From: Candidatus Woesearchaeota archaeon
Lineage (GTDB): Archaea; Nanobdellota; Nanobdellia; Nanobdellales; CAZNIQ01
Reading direction: 5' to 3'
Assembly (NCBI GenBank): GCA_964573185.1
Contig: CAZNIQ010000004.1
Location: 1-32,000 of the forward strand
Length of the DNA stretch: 32,000 nt
Shown: one piece after another, positions 3,943-9,596 of the stretch
Position numbering within the stretch: the stretch's first letter is position 1
How the letters are laid out: each line of letters starts with the position of its first letter
Program-made: the position numbers and the translations under genes
Notes under the pieces: generated by a model
What the model saw: the letters and a program-made list of their open reading frames with translations, nothing else
Told to the model about the DNA's origin: nothing
Database searches by the model: none

Positions 3943-4547
3943 TCTTTCAGGTAAAAAAGGTAAAAAACACATATATAATAGGAGTTGACCATGATTTAAT
4001 AAATAAAGAAGAATTTTTGAAGAGATACAACATTATAAAAGAAAAATACTACTCTTTTTTTGAAAAACTTGTTAAACACGATTATATATTTTTTATAGAG
4101 GCTAGATTTGATTACTTTGTAAATTTTCTATTAAATAAGGATCCTAGAATGTACGCTTTTGGCACTGCTGGTGCTATTTTGAAATTACTCGTAGAACTGG
4201 TGATGGAATTGAACAAGTTAGGAAAAACTGCTTTTATTGTTGCAGATCCCGCCCATGATGTATTAATAGATAAATACCCTTTGCTAAAAGCAATGGTTGA
4301 AAGTCCTTCTCTTATATATAAAACAGTGGCGTCTCTTTTAAAAGAAAGATTACCTTTTGACCCCACAATAACAATAGCTCCTGCTCAAACCTCCTTTGAT
4401 ATCTGGCTTTGGTATGGAATTATAAAACATTTTTCCCAAAATGAAAAATATTTGTCTAAATTAAAGAAAATTTTGAATAAAAAGGTAAGTAGAAGGGGTT
4501 TTCTTAAGTTTTTGGGGAAAGCCATTCTTGGTTACAGCATTTACTAG
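3939..4547 (+). CDS. Hypothetical protein, upstream part of a reading frame interrupted by one TAG
   Basis: 202 aa with no motif I recognise. The C-terminus (KKVSRRGFLKFLGKAILGYSIY) begins a hydrophobic helix that is cut by TAG at 4545-4547. Same frame as 4563..4874. Confidence 0.55.
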   Translation: MIFQVKKVKNTYIIGVDHDLINKEEFLKRYNIIKEKYYSFFEKLVKHDYIFFIEARFDYFVNFLLNKDPRMYAFGTAGAILKLLVELVMELNKLGKTAFIVADPAHDVLIDKYPLLKAMVESPSLIYKTVASLLKERLPFDPTITIAPAQTSFDIWLWYGIIKHFSQNEKYLSKLKKILNKKVSRRGFLKFLGKAILGYSIY

Positions 4548-4562
4548 TTCCTAGCTTCTACG

Positions 4563-4874
4563 TTGTTTATGATATTTCCTCAAACGAACTATATTTCTAT
4601 TAATGCTACCGACTTTAGGAACGTTATAATTTCAAAAATTGTTCAAAAAATAAAAGGTAAAAAAGTAATTATTAATGGAGCAGGGCACATACCGGGATTG
4701 GAATTCTACTTAAGCCATTCAGTAGCTCTTGAGACAAAATTCGAATTTTATGATGCTCTATCAAAACTTCTGACGAAGAAAAACCTAGGAGAATTGTGGT
4801 ACATTTATTATAGATTGGCAAAAATGGGAAATAAGATTTATTTTGCCGCAAAATACGATAAGATTAAGATTTAG
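4563..4874 (+). CDS. Hypothetical protein, downstream part of the TAG-interrupted frame
   Basis: 103 aa, in frame with 3939..4547 (offset 624 nt). The codons after the TAG (FLASTLFMIF) continue the hydrophobic run. The stop codon shares its last base with tRNA-Pro position 1. Confidence 0.45.
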   Translation: MFMIFPQTNYISINATDFRNVIISKIVQKIKGKKVIINGAGHIPGLEFYLSHSVALETKFEFYDALSKLLTKKNLGELWYIYYRLAKMGNKIYFAAKYDKIKI

Positions 4875-4944
4875 GGGCCGTAGGCTAGCGGTAGGCTGCC
4901 GGGTTCGGGTCCCGGTGACCCGGGTTCGAATCCCGGCGGCCCCA
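4874..4944 (+). tRNA. tRNA-Pro (anticodon CGG)
   Basis: Manual cloverleaf: acceptor GGGGCCG/CGGCCCC, D stem GGCT/GGCT (2 GC + 2 GU pairs), anticodon stem CCGGG/CCCGG with loop TTCGGGT, variable TGAC, T arm CCGGG-TTCGAAT-CCCGG, discriminator A. No encoded CCA. Confidence 0.9.
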
Positions 4945-4950
4945 TTTGAT
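4901..4950 (+). repeat. attL: 3' half of tRNA-Pro plus 6 nt of flank, left copy of the direct repeat
   Basis: Base-by-base alignment with 7993-8042 gives perfect blocks of 17 nt (cccggtgacccgggttc) and 18 nt (aatcccggcggccccatt) and 5 mismatches in 50. Confidence 0.75.
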
Positions 4951-5089
4951 ATTTACCAGAAAACAACAATTCTTTTAGTATAGATCGAATTTCATTGTCT
5001 TTTAGAAGATCTTTTAACTCTCTCAAAAGTTTAAGCTTTTTCTTAAGATCATGATAAGCTCTTTTAGTTTGAGACATGATAATCCCGGG

Positions 5090-5350
5090 CTACTCCATTA
5101 GGATACTATAATTAACCTGATACTTTTTCCCATCCCATAAGATGATCCCTTTATGATTTAGTAACTCTAATAGTTCATAGACTGTTTCTTTATCTAATCT
5201 TAATTCGTACATTAAGACTGCTACTAACTCCTCTATTGTGGGTAGTTCCTTTTGTTTTGCATAATAAAAGGAATAGAAATCAATTATAATTGTAAGTGTT
5301 TGTTTTAGCAATTTCCTTAGTTCTTCCGGAGGGAATTGTTCTAAAAGCAT
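5090..5350 (-). CDS. Small winged-helix (wHTH)-like DNA-binding protein, element-encoded
   Basis: 86 aa. TIEELVAVLMYELRLDKETVYELLELLNHKGIILWDGKKYQV resembles a helix-turn-helix plus beta wing. Confidence 0.55.
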   Translation of the reverse strand: MLLEQFPPEELRKLLKQTLTIIIDFYSFYYAKQKELPTIEELVAVLMYELRLDKETVYELLELLNHKGIILWDGKKYQVNYSILME

Positions 5351-5409
5351 CTTTTATATTTGGATATATAATTACTTTTTGTACTGAACGATACTTTCTT
5401 TTATTATAA

Positions 5410-5538
5410 TTATCCATTTTTAGTTTTTTGCAATTTCTTCTTTTCCTCCTCTTCCTGCATTTTCTTTAATTCCTTTAGTTTTTCTAAAACCCATTGTGGC
5501 AAACCAAGTTCTTTTACAAAATCTTCGGGTTTTAGCAT
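5410..5538 (-). CDS. Mini-ORF (42 aa), HTH/excisionase-like, element-encoded
   Basis: My own translation: MLKPEDFVKELGLPQWVLEKLKELKKMQEEEEKKKLQKTKNG. Below the ORF-track size cutoff. Same strand as the wHTH gene and divergent from the cargo ORFs. Confidence 0.35.
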   Translation of the reverse strand: MLKPEDFVKELGLPQWVLEKLKELKKMQEEEEKKKLQKTKNG

Positions 5539-5633
5539 GATAAAATTGCAAAAGAAAAACAATCTGTTTTTATTTTTCCAGATCATACTTTTCTGTACAT
5601 AATTTTATAAAAACCTTAGCTATAAAAAATTAC

Positions 5634-6710
5634 ATGGTACTATACATAGGCTTCTTAAAAGCAGTTTTACAAGATTCTCTTTCTTTCAAAAAATCTTATA
5701 CTACAAAAAAATACAAGTTTTATTTGGAAGGAGAAAAGGATAATACATATTATTATAGAACCTATATTTTACCTAAAGTAAAAGGAAGTGTTGTGTCTTT
5801 TCCCATTCTTTTAGGTACTATAAAGCTTAAGAGAATAGAAAAAACAAATATTTTGATTGTAGAGATAAATCCTAAATCTGGTAGAGAAAAGGAAGATATA
5901 AAGAAAGCTTATTCCTCACTTGTAAAAAGTCTGCCAGGTATTTATTATATAAACAGTTATATTATTTTTTCAGAATTTTTCAAAAGATATTTGAAGGGAA
6001 TACTTTCAGAGTACAATCTCTATATTCAAAAAATCGATTTTTTATACATTACTAAATACGGTAAAATAGGAGAATACAAAGGAAAAGAGTACGTGTCAAA
6101 ATATGGAAGCGTTTTAGATTTAAAAGATATTAATGAACTTTATGAAGATTTAAAAAGAAAGGGTATTGAAAAAATAATACCGTATGTTTTTTCAATAACA
6201 GATCGTAAGTTTCCTATAGCAATATTTACTGTAAAAAGAAGCTTGATCGCCGTAACGGATTATGGATTAAGAAAATATGAAGAGGTAATTGAACAGATTA
6301 AAAATAAGATTATTGAACTGGTTTTAAAAATAGAAAATATATCTAAATATAAAACAGGAAATCGAGTCAATAACAAGTTTGCAACTTCCAGTACAATAGA
6401 TATAATTAAAGAAGAATACTATTTTGTTAGAAATTCCTATTTAAGCCTATTAAAAAAAGAAGAATTATTAAAGTTGGAAGAAGCTATATTGAGCAACCCT
6501 ATTAGCTACTTCATTGCAGAGGATAAAGAAGGAAGGATTGATATAATATCACTAAGGAAAGAGGGAGATAACGTAGAAATATATGTAACGCCATTTGATT
6601 TATTTAGAAATACAGTATCACCTGTTATAATAGATAAGTGGGAAGCTCTCAGATATATTACATACTCGGAAAATGATGATCTCTTCAGAAATATTCAAAA
6701 AATTACTTGA
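5634..6710 (+). CDS. Orphan protein (358 aa), element cargo gene 1
   Basis: Long ORF with no motif I recognise. It contains no His and no Cys. It overlaps the next ORF by 38 nt. Confidence 0.65.
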   Translation: MVLYIGFLKAVLQDSLSFKKSYTTKKYKFYLEGEKDNTYYYRTYILPKVKGSVVSFPILLGTIKLKRIEKTNILIVEINPKSGREKEDIKKAYSSLVKSLPGIYYINSYIIFSEFFKRYLKGILSEYNLYIQKIDFLYITKYGKIGEYKGKEYVSKYGSVLDLKDINELYEDLKRKGIEKIIPYVFSITDRKFPIAIFTVKRSLIAVTDYGLRKYEEVIEQIKNKIIELVLKIENISKYKTGNRVNNKFATSSTIDIIKEEYYFVRNSYLSLLKKEELLKLEEAILSNPISYFIAEDKEGRIDIISLRKEGDNVEIYVTPFDLFRNTVSPVIIDKWEALRYITYSENDDLFRNIQKIT

Positions 6711-7662
6711 AAATTATAAATACGAAATTATTGATTTTTATTTTTATAATTTAATATTTTTGGGTAGTCTGGCTTCAGCTATAATTGCAGGAAAATATTA
6801 TCCTATTGAAATAGAGAAAAATGGAAAATACGATATTTTAGTAGAATTAGATGATAGAACTTTAGATTTTGAAATTACAAGAATAATTAGCTCCTCCAAC
6901 AGAGAGAAGTTAATAGATTATATAAACAAGAAAAAACGCGCTGCAGAAGAGATAAAGGCTACTCCTGTATTAGTAGTATTGGTAGAAGAAGGTAACAAGG
7001 ATCTTTTTGAAATAAAGAAAGTTTTAGATGATTCAAAACTTTCCTACATCATTGCAAAATTTAAAATAGAAAAGGATTATGATATATTTATAGATTTTGA
7101 AACGTATACAGAAGATCTTATTATTAAAGATATTTTTGAATTTATTAAAAATATTCATAAAAGAGTAACCAAAACTCCCCCCGATACCCTTAGAGCGCTG
7201 TTATTAAAACTTCCCTTTATTCAAGATTTTGAATCAAAGCCAGATTACGAAATTCTAACCTTAGTTTCAATTTTTAATCATCTTTATTATGTTATAAAAA
7301 GTTTTAGAGATATAAACATAGAGAGATATTTGTATTCCGATTTGCCAAAAGAGTTTGTTGGAATATTAAAAGAACATTTAATTAATAACCTAAGGAATTT
7401 AGATTTAGAAAGAAAGGACATTGAAAATTACATAGAGCTTTTTATTGAAAATTCAAAAATTCGAGAACGAATTGAAAGAATATTTAAATATCGTCTATAT
7501 TATAGAATTCGGGATTTTTGTCGGGATCTTAAAAAGTTATCTGAAAATAAAATTAAGAAATGTTTAGAGAAGCTTATAGAAGTAAAAGAGTGCTACGAAA
7601 AAGATGATAATAAAAATAAAAGAAAATACAAAGAGTGTTTAAAGAGGATCCTTGGAATCTAA
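6673..7662 (+). CDS. Orphan protein (329 aa), element cargo gene 2
   Basis: N-terminal hydrophobic segment (FYFYNLIFLGSLASAIIAG). K/E-rich helical C-terminus with four spaced Cys. No Walker, HUH or other catalytic motif recognised. Confidence 0.65.
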   Translation: MMISSEIFKKLLENYKYEIIDFYFYNLIFLGSLASAIIAGKYYPIEIEKNGKYDILVELDDRTLDFEITRIISSSNREKLIDYINKKKRAAEEIKATPVLVVLVEEGNKDLFEIKKVLDDSKLSYIIAKFKIEKDYDIFIDFETYTEDLIIKDIFEFIKNIHKRVTKTPPDTLRALLLKLPFIQDFESKPDYEILTLVSIFNHLYYVIKSFRDINIERYLYSDLPKEFVGILKEHLINNLRNLDLERKDIENYIELFIENSKIRERIERIFKYRLYYRIRDFCRDLKKLSENKIKKCLEKLIEVKECYEKDDNKNKRKYKECLKRILGI

Positions 7663-7839
7663 AAAATAACTATAATTTTCCAATAACATCTAAAAATATG
7701 TTTTCTATAAAGTTTTATTATTTTACCCACCTTTTCTCTTGCAACCTCCTGAATAACTTACTTTACCTCTCCCTTAGAGATCTTGATAACTTCTACAAAT
7801 GCTCATCTTTGCTCTTTACTTTTGAGAATTTAAATGTTA

Positions 7840-8037
7840 TTAAATCTTGTCTATTCTATAGAAGAGATCCTTGATGTGGCTTTCAGAGAGATTCCGGGTT
7901 ACCAACCAATAGTAGAATTCATCGAGAAGATCCAAATTTACAGAAACAAATAAATACTGACGAAATATTGAAAAGTTTGAAATTGTTTGAATGGGCTTGG
8001 GACCCGGTGACCCGGGTTCAAATCCCGGCGGCCCCAT
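7840..8037 (-). pseudogene. Int(C) remnant of the partitioned integrase (truncated)
   Basis: 65-aa ORF starting antisense in the att repeat (MGPPGFEPGSPGP). It continues with LLDEFYYWLVTRNLSESHIKDLFYRI, reminiscent of a tyrosine-recombinase N-domain. It stops at 7840, and 7663-7839 has only stop-interrupted frames. Confidence 0.45.
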
Positions 8038-8042
8038 TAGAT
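7993..8042 (+). repeat. attR: partial tRNA-Pro-like 3' half, right copy of the direct repeat
   Basis: Carries the anticodon-stem 3' strand, variable region, T arm (TTCAAAT) and acceptor 3' strand plus A. It lacks a 5' half. Its anticodon-loop-like segment is CTTGGGA (UGG type). Confidence 0.75.
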
Positions 8043-8450
8043 TTTGTTTTCTGTTCTTGTTATAGTAAAATAAATTAATGTTAATGCAATATTTGAAACA
8101 TTACTAACTTATCTTTATAACTTACATCTCCTAATTTTAATACTTCTTCTAATAACGTAATCGCTTATATAATAAATATAACTAAAATTTCCATTAGGGT
8201 TCGCAGGTGCTTTAATTCACGTAATTTATTATCTCAATATACAATACTTCCATATAGAATTATAAGCGGGATAAAAGAAAAGAAAATATTTTGGAGAGTT
8301 GTATGTATTTTAAAAAAAGATTATGAAGAACGAAACAAACACAAGAACGAAATATATTATCATTGTATAGATAAAAAATTTTGCAAATTCTAGTATTATT
8401 CCTTTTATTTTTGACTTATCCTTAATAAAGTTTAAAAACATATTATTTTA

Positions 8451-8506
8451 GGCCCGGTACCGCTATCGGGTTGAGACGTGATACCTGACTTCAAACCGGG
8501 CCGACA
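8451..8506 (+). ncRNA. H/ACA box sRNA candidate (single hairpin)
   Basis: GC-rich island: lower stem GGCCCGG/CCGGGCC, 8-nt and 7-nt pocket strands (TACCGCTA, CTTCAAA), upper stem TCGGGT/ACCTGA, 11-nt loop TGAGACGTGAT with two GA steps, then G-ACA. There are 15 nt from the upper-stem base to ACA. Confidence 0.6.
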
Positions 8507-8507
8507 A

Positions 8508-9596
8508 TTATGTGTTAATTTTAAATCTTAGTATTCCGCCTATTTTAAAGTTGGAAAATTGTTCTCCTTCTGGCGTTTTCTTTGAAATAATTTCCACTTT
8601 CGTTCCCATTTGTTCTGCAAGTTCTATTAATTCTTTTAATTTTTCTTTATCAAAGTCTTCTGAAACCAATAATACTTCTACAGCACCCATTTCTAAAGCT
8701 TTTTTCGTATCTTCATATCCATAAACGACCATATCGGGATCTTTTGCTAGATAATAGAAAAACTTCTCTAATAATTTCTTTTCTCTTATCAAGGAAGTTT
8801 TTTCTAACACATCCTTAGCTCTTTCAACTAATTCTCTTAATCCGTACTCATCTGAGTATCCGGTGTCAACCACTGCTATTATTTTTTGTTTGAGGTAATA
8901 TGGCAAATAGTCTCCTTCTACAAACTCTTCTTTCAAAGGTCCAGGTCCTCCTACAATTATTCCCCTTAAATTATCTTTGTATTTGTCAAAATACTCTCTA
9001 GCTTTCTCTCCTATATATTTTAACCAATTATGTGTTTCCTGTTCAATTATTCTCTGAAATCTTACAGCAGATTGTCCTCCTTTATGATGTTTCGACGGAA
9101 CCCAAGAATCCCTAGATTCTAAAACAATTATATCTTTTCCTTTTAGCAAACCAATAGCCATAGAACCTCTATCTAGGACTATCAAACCGTAAACATCTTT
9201 ATCTTCAAGTAATTTCTTTAGAGGATCTAAAACGAATTTTGAATCACAACGATATAATCTTATTCTTAAGGGTTCTGGAGGCTCTATAACCCACATTCTT
9301 ATGTCAGTCTTATCCTTTCCAACATTCCCACAGAATATAATCAATCCCTTGTCTGGAATTTTCTTAAATTTCTTTAGATAGTTTATGATTTTTGCTAAAG
9401 CTTCTGAAACATGTTGTCTTGTAGTTTTATCCTTTATGTTTTGTGCTGTTGAATATTCATAAGAAAGATGGTCTAAAAGCTTTGCTAAATCATAGCCAGC
9501 TGGGATATAATAACTAATCAATTCAGTACCTCTTCCCTCAATTTTCTCTAATTCTTCTATAAGCATTTTGAGCTTTAACTTTTGAACATCATCCAT
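8508..9596 (-). CDS. prf1: Peptide chain release factor aRF1
   Basis: 362 aa. GGQS motif (HHKGGQSAVRF), YRCDSKF (YxCxxxF), and TAQNIKDKTTR (NIKS-type motif, here NIKD). Confidence 0.92.
   Translation of the reverse strand: MDDVQKLKLKMLIEELEKIEGRGTELISYYIPAGYDLAKLLDHLSYEYSTAQNIKDKTTRQHVSEALAKIINYLKKFKKIPDKGLIIFCGNVGKDKTDIRMWVIEPPEPLRIRLYRCDSKFVLDPLKKLLEDKDVYGLIVLDRGSMAIGLLKGKDIIVLESRDSWVPSKHHKGGQSAVRFQRIIEQETHNWLKYIGEKAREYFDKYKDNLRGIIVGGPGPLKEEFVEGDYLPYYLKQKIIAVVDTGYSDEYGLRELVERAKDVLEKTSLIREKKLLEKFFYYLAKDPDMVVYGYEDTKKALEMGAVEVLLVSEDFDKEKLKELIELAEQMGTKVEIISKKTPEGEQFSNFKIGGILRFKINT

Follow-up and report, generated by a model that had tools for sequence, protein, structure and literature searches.

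The DNA analysed here (the window) is a stretch of 32,000 nucleotides (nt) at the start of contig CAZNIQ010000004.1 of a Candidatus Woesearchaeota archaeon (assembly GCA_964573185.1), the source samples being deep-sea hydrothermal vent deposits. It is archaeal, AT-rich DNA with a GC content of 30.5% overall. Positions 5090-7662 form part of an SSV-type integrative element of about 3.1 kb (~4947-8038, about 3092 nt), integrated in a tRNA-Pro(CGG) gene and with a GC content of 27.6%, compared with 30.5% in its flanks. The element genes are organized in two units that diverge from an AT-rich control region: a leftward unit of a mini-ORF, ORF86 and the integrase fragment Int(N), and a rightward unit of two large open reading frames (ORFs), ORF358 and ORF329. 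The latter two together occupy 2029 of the approximately 3092 nt (66%). Across three population samples the element is 100% identical, with zero single-nucleotide polymorphisms (SNPs).

An initial annotation, made from the sequence alone, had singled out the two large ORFs as an orphan pair of cargo genes. Their coordinates, their lengths of 358 and 329 amino acids (aa), the 38-nt overlap between them and their two-thirds share of the element all agree with the ORF list.

The ORF358-ORF329 gene pair

ORF358 (5634..6710, plus strand) encodes a basic protein of 358 aa with an isoelectric point (pI) of 9.3 and a mixed beta/alpha character; its composition includes 0 His and 0 Cys, as the initial annotation had stated. 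ORF329 (6673..7662, plus strand; 329 aa, pI 8.3) overlaps it by 38 nt in the +1 frame, and the two genes are probably translationally coupled through this overlap. The ORF329 protein has an N-terminal hydrophobic helix, an alpha/beta domain at residues ~40-145, and an all-helical, K/E-rich C-terminal half that carries cysteines at positions 283, 297, 307 and 322. The segment previously described as transmembrane-like does contain the most hydrophobic 19-mer of the protein (residues 22-40), though with a Kyte-Doolittle mean of 1.59 this is only borderline for a membrane span. A motif scan found no Walker A, HxH, CxxC or GxGxxG in either protein, which agrees with the earlier failure to recognise Walker A, HUH or zinc-finger-type signatures; the sole DxD match in the pair is one DYD in ORF329. 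An internal three-fold repeat considered for ORF358 was dropped, there being no hhalign signal for it.

ORF358 and ORF329 are genuine protein genes and not chance frames. The stop probability in DNA of 27.6% GC is 0.088 per codon, giving a probability of encountering no stop of about 5e-15 for ORF358 and 7e-14 for ORF329, and among 300 shuffles no open frame exceeded 128 codons; the lengths observed are thus far beyond those of the random AT-rich open frames that the initial annotation had named as an alternative. Codon-position composition (purine about 0.67 at position 1; GC1>GC2>GC3) is like that of host genes and is lost in shifted frames. The ratio of nonsynonymous to synonymous substitutions (dN/dS) is unusable here, since there are no SNPs between samples and the sole homologue, at 28% identity, is too distant.

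Homologues of the pair and a second locus

Sensitive profile and structure searches gave no significant match to either protein, and a single relative, of ORF358, was identified, so that the orphan status proposed initially is upheld. An exhaustive phmmer search over 1.84 billion representatives, with ORF358 and ORF329 as one concatenated query, returned one non-self match, the 345-aa protein P0011, which aligns to ORF358 only (E 3.2e-4 library-wide). In pairwise BLASTP the ORF358 and P0011 proteins match over their full length with 28% identity (E 2e-14), and MAFFT aligns them collinearly from Met1 through to the C-terminus, with the common blocks IYYIN, PYVxFSI, NPI, EDK and TP.

No other relatives were found. 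A word-indexed search of 5.8 billion protein clusters returned only self for ORF358 and ORF329 and no new member for an ORF358+P0011 profile, and no third member was found with this profile in proteins, genomes, metagenomes or viral contigs. Scans of genomes, metagenomes and viral contigs with single proteins and with alignments recovered nothing beyond self and P0011. ORF329 has no sequence homologue in either the 5.8-billion-cluster search or the 1.84 billion representatives. By tblastn, ORF358 and ORF329 have zero matches in 72,556 plasmid and 50,697 phage records; none of the five ORFs of the element matches a described virus or plasmid family, and the pair has no resemblance to viral proteins in PHROGs or BFVD. 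A hidden Markov model search of PADLOC-DB found no family matching ORF358, ORF329, P0011 or the 349-aa partner of P0011 described below. Two matches were set aside as chance, APOBEC3 in ORF329 (E 0.008) and ParB-CE in P0011 (E 0.04): both are below the cut-off and neither recurs in the homologue, and ORF329 lacks the zinc motif of APOBEC.

P0011 is encoded on four near-identical contigs from vent-deposit metagenomes. Two nucleotides downstream of it, compared with the 38-nt overlap in the window pair, lies an ORF of 349 aa (L008:1589-2638), followed after 16 nt by a DUF234 ATPase gene and then by a DUF4143 ATPase gene; the opposite strand encodes a PIN protein and two proteins of no recognised family, and another ATPase gene comes next. 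A host tRNA methyltransferase gene ends 57 nt before the pair. The genes on that upstream side are ordinary host genes of 40-46% GC; precisely at P0011 the GC content falls to 20-30%, and it remains low over 7.3 kb or more. The valyl-tRNA synthetase (ValRS) of this second host is only 37% identical to that of the window, and together with the GC drop this places the pair in horizontally acquired DNA of an unrelated archaeon. No tRNA, integrase or regulators were seen beside the P0011 pair on the contigs examined.

The 349-aa partner resembles ORF329 in length class and in its coupling to the upstream gene. Homology between the two is not demonstrable, their similarity being at background, and we retain the 349-aa ORF as a positional counterpart only; the four spaced cysteines that had been noted in ORF329 are present as described, but have no counterpart at the C-terminus of the partner.

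With full-length collinear homology and a tightly coupled downstream partner of ~330-350 aa in both loci, ORF358 and P0011 constitute a new two-member family. The co-occurrence survey that had been suggested for the pair thus found its arrangement once more, and the genes do not appear as core genes away from mobile DNA, the sole homologous pair lying in compositionally foreign DNA. The presence of an ORF358-type gene with a coupled partner of ~350 aa in the foreign DNA of two unrelated archaea indicates that the pair is a two-gene unit that moves horizontally.

The island that contains P0011 (L008 2655-7857 and L007 10414-11436) is a mosaic, with ATPase genes of 28-34% GC and ORFans of 20-24% GC. 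Three genes are of the 'archaeal ATPase' type: ATPase_2/DUF234, AAA_14/DUF4143 and one more that is 87% identical in DNA to the first at its N-terminus. Alongside them are two ORFans of about 20% GC and a gene with a PIN domain. At L010 1138-2188 a 1-nt indel relative to L008 splits the 349-aa partner into 274 and 54 aa, which reflects either an assembly error or a frameshifted population variant.

Integration site and split integrase

The integration target is the tRNA-Pro(CGG) gene at 4874..4944 (plus strand), identified by ARAGORN and by an Rfam tRNA match of 65 bits; the gene is intact, its 3' part now being supplied by the element. The attachment sites (att) form a 53-nt direct repeat with 89% identity between the copies. 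The left copy, attL (4901..4953, plus strand), was recognised by repeat search and by alignment with an empty tRNA-Pro gene, and includes an identical 17-nt core, CCCGGTGACCCGGGTTC, at 4911-4927. The right copy, attR (7993..8045, plus strand), is a displaced partial tRNA-Pro 3' half with element-type bases to the left of the core and the ancestral host bases CAAAT and TAG to its right.

The empty site is provided by a relative, GCA_054017035.1, which is 89% identical in genes upstream of the tRNA (CNNM, S9) and 91% identical in RpoN, and which carries the same tRNA-Pro gene unoccupied; the insertion is therefore later than the split at 89% identity. The 3' half of the window tRNA-Pro differs from that of the relative at positions where the right-hand copy matches the relative, and CAAAT and TAG 3' of the core are common to the right copy and the relative. 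In a three-way alignment the left copy is host-type and the right copy element-type 5' of the core, and the pattern is reversed 3' of it; all five informative sites (5/5, scored against the empty site in the relative, L005) fit a single attP x attB crossover. Homology with the relative picks up again at 8450. The comparison of occupied and empty sites applies at the att level only, the gene order downstream of tRNA-Pro being rearranged.

Both ends of the element carry integrase sequence. Int(N) (4871..5077, minus strand) is a 68-aa N-terminal fragment of an SSV-type integrase that reads through the antisense of the tRNA 3' half. At the other end lies the Int(C) remnant (7663..8037, minus strand), in which 65 codons are open (7840-8037, corresponding to a SAM-like N-domain) and the sequence below 7840 is degenerate. 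The att-encoded peptide MGPPGFEPGSPGP ends Int(N) and begins Int(C) in the same frame (phmmer 7.5e-7), and the two join into one reading frame of 109 aa. Such an in-frame split at att is the hallmark of SSV-type integrases, which hold the attachment site inside their own gene and are split on integration (PMC4158269, PMC7253208). The sole profile signal of the integrase remnant, which is short, is a weak one to Phage_int_SAM_5 (Pfam, E 0.04); the reconstructed integrase, likewise short, has no tblastn match in phage or plasmid records and none in viral contigs.

The rest of an SSV-type integrase would need about 750 nt, and about 375 nt are present here. Below 7840 all three frames of the minus strand are interrupted by stops and ORF329 is only ~180 nt away, from which we conclude that the catalytic domain has been lost; an intact tyrosine-recombinase catalytic domain (R...K...R...Y) is absent from translations of the minus-strand frames. 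Because a self-splitting integrase without its catalytic domain remains, the element is now immobilised, and it is a dead remnant. The initial suspicion of a dead integrase in an integrated element is thereby confirmed, by both the lost catalytic domain and the att crossover.

The element/tRNA-Pro locus is a hotspot of variation in which older remnants may be present. Segments 4073-4866 and 8046-8449 lack a counterpart in the regions around tRNA-Pro and aRF1 that were fetched from the 89%-identical relative; the first, on the upstream side, covers most of a 202-aa ORF together with a 103-aa ORF, and the second (~400 nt) includes a hydrophobic ORF of 43 aa. In the relative, a tRNA-like gene not called by ARAGORN lies 215 nt downstream of the tRNA-Pro gene (L005 12467-12590, minus strand). 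Its acceptor and T-arm are recognisable, it probably bears an intron, and its T-arm region cross-matches the att core.

Putative regulatory genes and control region

ORF86 (5090..5350, minus strand) encodes an acidic protein of 86 aa (pI 5.0) and precedes Int(N) by 12 nt in the leftward operon that they share. It is probably a winged-helix DNA-binding regulator. Its Pfam matches are all sub-threshold and involve six families, at least four of them winged-helix (WHD_MCM8, SAMD1_WH, Penicillinase_R and HTH_29), together with Phage_rep_O and DsrC; the best is WHD_MCM8 (E 8e-4; 19.9 bits against a cut-off of 26). No homologues of ORF86 were found in phage or plasmid records or in viral contigs.

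The mini-ORF (5410..5586, minus strand) encodes 58 aa from the ATG at 5586, the start chosen by gene callers, or 42 aa from the ATG at 5538, and has a basic, K/E-rich tail. The initial annotation had given it as a 42-aa gene with a helix-turn-helix (HTH) and ORF86 as winged HTH (wHTH)-like. The latter assignment stands on the sub-threshold Pfam matches alone; the former finds no profile support, as the mini-ORF has no match in Pfam or PHROGs, and it may at most be imagined as an HTH- or Xis-like protein. Likewise, the AT-rich divergent control region (5539..5633) has the 95 nt reported if the 42-aa form is used, and the same frame is open from ATG 5586, which leaves a spacer of 47 nt. A TATA-like sequence, TTTTATAAAA, can be read at about 5605-5614; being centred ~25 nt before the ATG of ORF358, it suggests a leaderless mRNA.

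Flanking regions

Just 3' of the aRF1 gene (8508-9596, minus strand) there is a GC-rich hairpin in AT-rich intergenic DNA (8449-8507, plus strand), which is probably an unannotated host H/ACA small RNA lying outside the element. It consists of an 8-bp lower stem, an internal loop and an upper stem, with an ACA starting one base (G) after the stem; its folding energy is -23.5 kcal/mol (z = -2.8), and it is also conserved in the relative genome (L003). In a 181-nt search the Rfam families snoR9 and HgcG/Pab40, both of archaeal H/ACA guide RNAs, matched below threshold (E about 1e-3). The MCM gene of the relative (L005 19818-20405) contains an intein with a LAGLIDADG endonuclease domain (Pfam).

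Structure predictions and a candidate nuclease core in ORF329

Single-sequence AlphaFold2 models had predicted local distance difference test (pLDDT) values of 42.3 for ORF358 and 38.6 for ORF329, and Foldseek searches with them against PDB and BFVD gave no match at E <= 1e-3. The ORF358 matches, to double-stranded RNA-binding domain (dsRBD) proteins, sliding clamps and Pur-alpha/Whirly, had TM-scores of 0.09-0.18 and were not used. The weak top matches of ORF329 are enriched in proteins of the restriction-endonuclease fold: SfsA (E 0.059, probability 0.72), EndA, BamHI, YaeQ, PaqCI, PA endonuclease and CdiA-CT.

The predicted order of secondary structure in the low-confidence ORF329 model is alpha-beta-beta-beta-alpha-beta, and a candidate non-canonical motif, E18...D54...E67-I-T69...N85-K-K87, can be placed on it. 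D54 and E67-x-T69 fall on consecutive strands and K86/K87 (YxNKK) in the helix that follows, where by analogy the lysine pair could substitute for the missing lysine of the (D/E)-x-K motif. This candidate core fits the 'PD-EXX-K' variation of the PD-(D/E)xK superfamily catalogued in PMC3424549. In a global alignment, ORF329 and the 349-aa partner have in common an acidic residue in helix 1, D54/I55, E67/I68 and YxNKK. The earlier statement that the pair carries no PD-(D/E)xK signature therefore holds for canonical motifs and profile matches, with the qualification that ORF329 contains this weak, unproven non-canonical candidate. A restriction-endonuclease-like core in ORF329 is, as modelled, a weak and unproven lead.

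Possible roles of the gene pair

None of the roles first proposed (replication, structural or defence) is confirmed. We tentatively favour the possibility that the pair is an accessory module acting on nucleic acids in conflicts between mobile element and host (exclusion, defence or addiction). ORF329 would then contain a restriction-endonuclease-like effector core with a migrated lysine, and the basic ORF358 protein would be its nucleic-acid-binding or sensing partner. We prefer a conflict module because of the island neighbourhood, the retention of the pair in a dead element and the nuclease hint in ORF329. The neighbours at the second locus, DUF234 and DUF4143 ATPases and a PIN protein, are of conflict type, and both ATPase classes have been listed as bearing PD-(D/E)xK domains (PMC3424549). 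Smith-Waterman comparison of the candidate core with the neighbouring DUF234 and DUF4143 domains scored at background; this comparison has low power, those relatives also being at background with one another.

A number of observations weigh against this preference. Neither ORF358 nor ORF329 has a family match in Pfam, PHROGs, NCBIfam or PADLOC, or a match in PDB by sequence or by profile, and the isolated N-terminal domain of ORF329 gave no Pfam match up to E 10 and nil in PDB profile searches. Fold matches are not reliable, because both models are of low confidence (pLDDT 42 and 39), and the canonical (D/E)-x-K lysine is absent from ORF329, with Thr at position 69 (Ser in the partner). The alignment of ORF329 with its positional counterpart is at background: full-length Smith-Waterman with shuffles gave z = 4.0 against 3.4 for a negative control, the partner ranked 4th of 70 unrelated ORFs, and hhalign returned no collinear alignment (probability 0.3%), so that the motif common to both may be a coincidence. 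The argument from the island context is one of association and draws on a single locus, and purifying selection on the pair is not demonstrable, the element being identical in all samples. Finally, the decay of the integrase may have been a single deletion, in which case intact ORFs may simply be young, and the selection for retention inferred in the initial annotation is not supported.

The pair might instead be a novel replication and maintenance module of a small integrative plasmid, which we regard as rather doubtful but only slightly less likely than the conflict module. ORF358 would be a DNA-binding initiator lacking classical motifs and ORF329 a nicking or membrane-anchoring partner, in the manner of Rep and p24 of the tiny Thermococcales plasmids, with the divergent wHTH gene and the mini-ORF providing copy and integration control. 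An excised SSV-type element needs a means of replication, and every other gene of this element is regulatory or integrative; this elimination argument is weak, however, because the deletion that truncated the integrase gene may have removed other genes too. A layout of divergent control region plus coupled two-gene operon would suit such a module, as would the basic nature of both proteins (pI 9.3 and 8.3). There is also precedent, in that new archaeal Rep families have repeatedly arisen from ORFans of this kind (PMC2926602). Yet the pair has no NTPase, primase, HUH or wHTH signature: no initiator signature (HUH, DxD/prim-pol, Walker A or iteron origin) and no Pfam Rep family was encountered, and ORF358 has no His. 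Repeat searches found no iterons, tandem repeats or strong inverted repeats within the element, and at the second locus the pair is not accompanied by an integrase or regulators. An active plasmid family would moreover be expected to exceed two members among 15 billion proteins, and the pair has no match among the plasmid and phage records searched.

It is unlikely that the pair is left-over, functionless cargo, such as former virion or morphogenesis proteins of a larger provirus, still intact since the truncating deletion is recent. The same two-gene arrangement, with both ORFs intact, is present in a second, unrelated genome; a frameshift in DNA of 26% GC would cut the ORFs short almost at once, given the stop probability above; and the proteins do not resemble viral ones in PHROGs or BFVD. 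What this explanation has on its side is age and context: the element is identical in three samples and so may be young, the empty site in the relative dates the insertion to after the 89%-identity split, the differences between the att copies are explained by attP versus attB and not by decay, and the majority of genes in archaeal mobile elements are ORFans (PMC4158269).

The reading of both ORFs as normal core genes of the host, with a tRNA fragment forming the flanking repeat by coincidence, is effectively refuted: the second pair does follow a host tRNA methyltransferase gene at 57 nt with no tRNA or integrase in view, but only one homologue exists in 1.84 billion representatives and none in the fetched parts (about 47 kb) of the 89%-identical relative, whose tRNA-Pro site is empty, GC falls by 15-20 points at the second locus, and the att crossover pattern and in-frame split integrase favour integration.

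A tentative possibility is that the pair represents a two-protein system not described before. It would be either a new family of plasmid replication proteins or a new system of archaeal defence or exclusion whose effector is a divergent nuclease, and it would be transferred horizontally, on integrative elements and islands, among hyperthermophilic vent archaea that are only distantly related. Elements of this type are well known; the cargo, however, has no counterpart among described viruses, plasmids or defence systems, and a single relative among about 15 billion predicted proteins, which retains the two-gene arrangement within foreign DNA of a different phylum-level lineage. This recurrence in the same arrangement marks the pair as a discrete transferable unit and not random ORFan noise. 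Were it a replication module, it would contribute a new family of initiators and potentially a vector backbone for AT-rich vent archaea that cannot yet be cultured; as a defence or addiction module, it would enlarge the still small set of systems specific to archaea. At present the pair is a well-delimited candidate and not a discovery, and its significance is moderate, because ORFan cargo is normal in archaeal mobile elements and no mechanism is established.

Comparison with known systems

The element shares its general organization with the SSV-type ('suicidal') integrase elements of hyperthermophilic archaea, including fuselloviruses such as SSV1, pSSVi/pXZ1-like plasmids and the pT26-2/TKV family. 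In these, att lies within the int ORF (PMC4158269; PMC7253208), int is divided on integration into a tRNA gene so that Int(N) and Int(C) bound the element, the tRNA 3' part is restored by the element, and small wHTH regulators adjoin int. The window element differs in having no catalytic domain, with ~110 N-terminal residues of the integrase reconstructable, and in its size of only 3.1 kb. Its ORFs match no described virus or plasmid family, and likeness of the integrase remnant to SSV-family integrases is not demonstrated.

The candidate core of ORF329 resembles PD-(D/E)xK phosphodiesterases, a group that takes in the C-terminal domains of the archaeal DUF234 and DUF4143 ATPases, in its acidic residue in helix 1, an Asp starting strand 2, a Glu in strand 3 and a Lys-Lys pair in helix 2, and the partner at the second locus has IEIDIY...AIEIS where the adjoining DUF234 protein has VEIDLL...AIECK. 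It departs from them in having Ser/Thr for the canonical Lys and no family profile match, and model confidence is too low for a fold call.

The tiny Thermococcales plasmids pTN1, pRT1 and pGT5 encode a Rep and p24, a membrane-associated DNA-binding protein; the Rep is a rolling-circle HUH enzyme, and the plasmids are not integrative. The window element is alike in its size class (about 3-3.5 kb), in its association with hyperthermophile hosts of deep-sea vents, and in combining a large ORF with a second protein that begins with a hydrophobic segment and ends in a charged helical region. ORF358 differs from their Rep in having no His at all, and the pair has no tblastn match in the plasmid collection.

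A further parallel is with the 'dark matter islands' and ORFan cargo of archaeal integrated elements described by Makarova et al. 2014 (PMC4158269), in which fast-evolving, uncharacterised genes of narrow distribution are clustered by integrases and wHTH regulators in compositionally deviant DNA. The ORF358-ORF329 pair differs from these in being rarer, with two members, and in recurring as a coupled pair across distantly related hosts.

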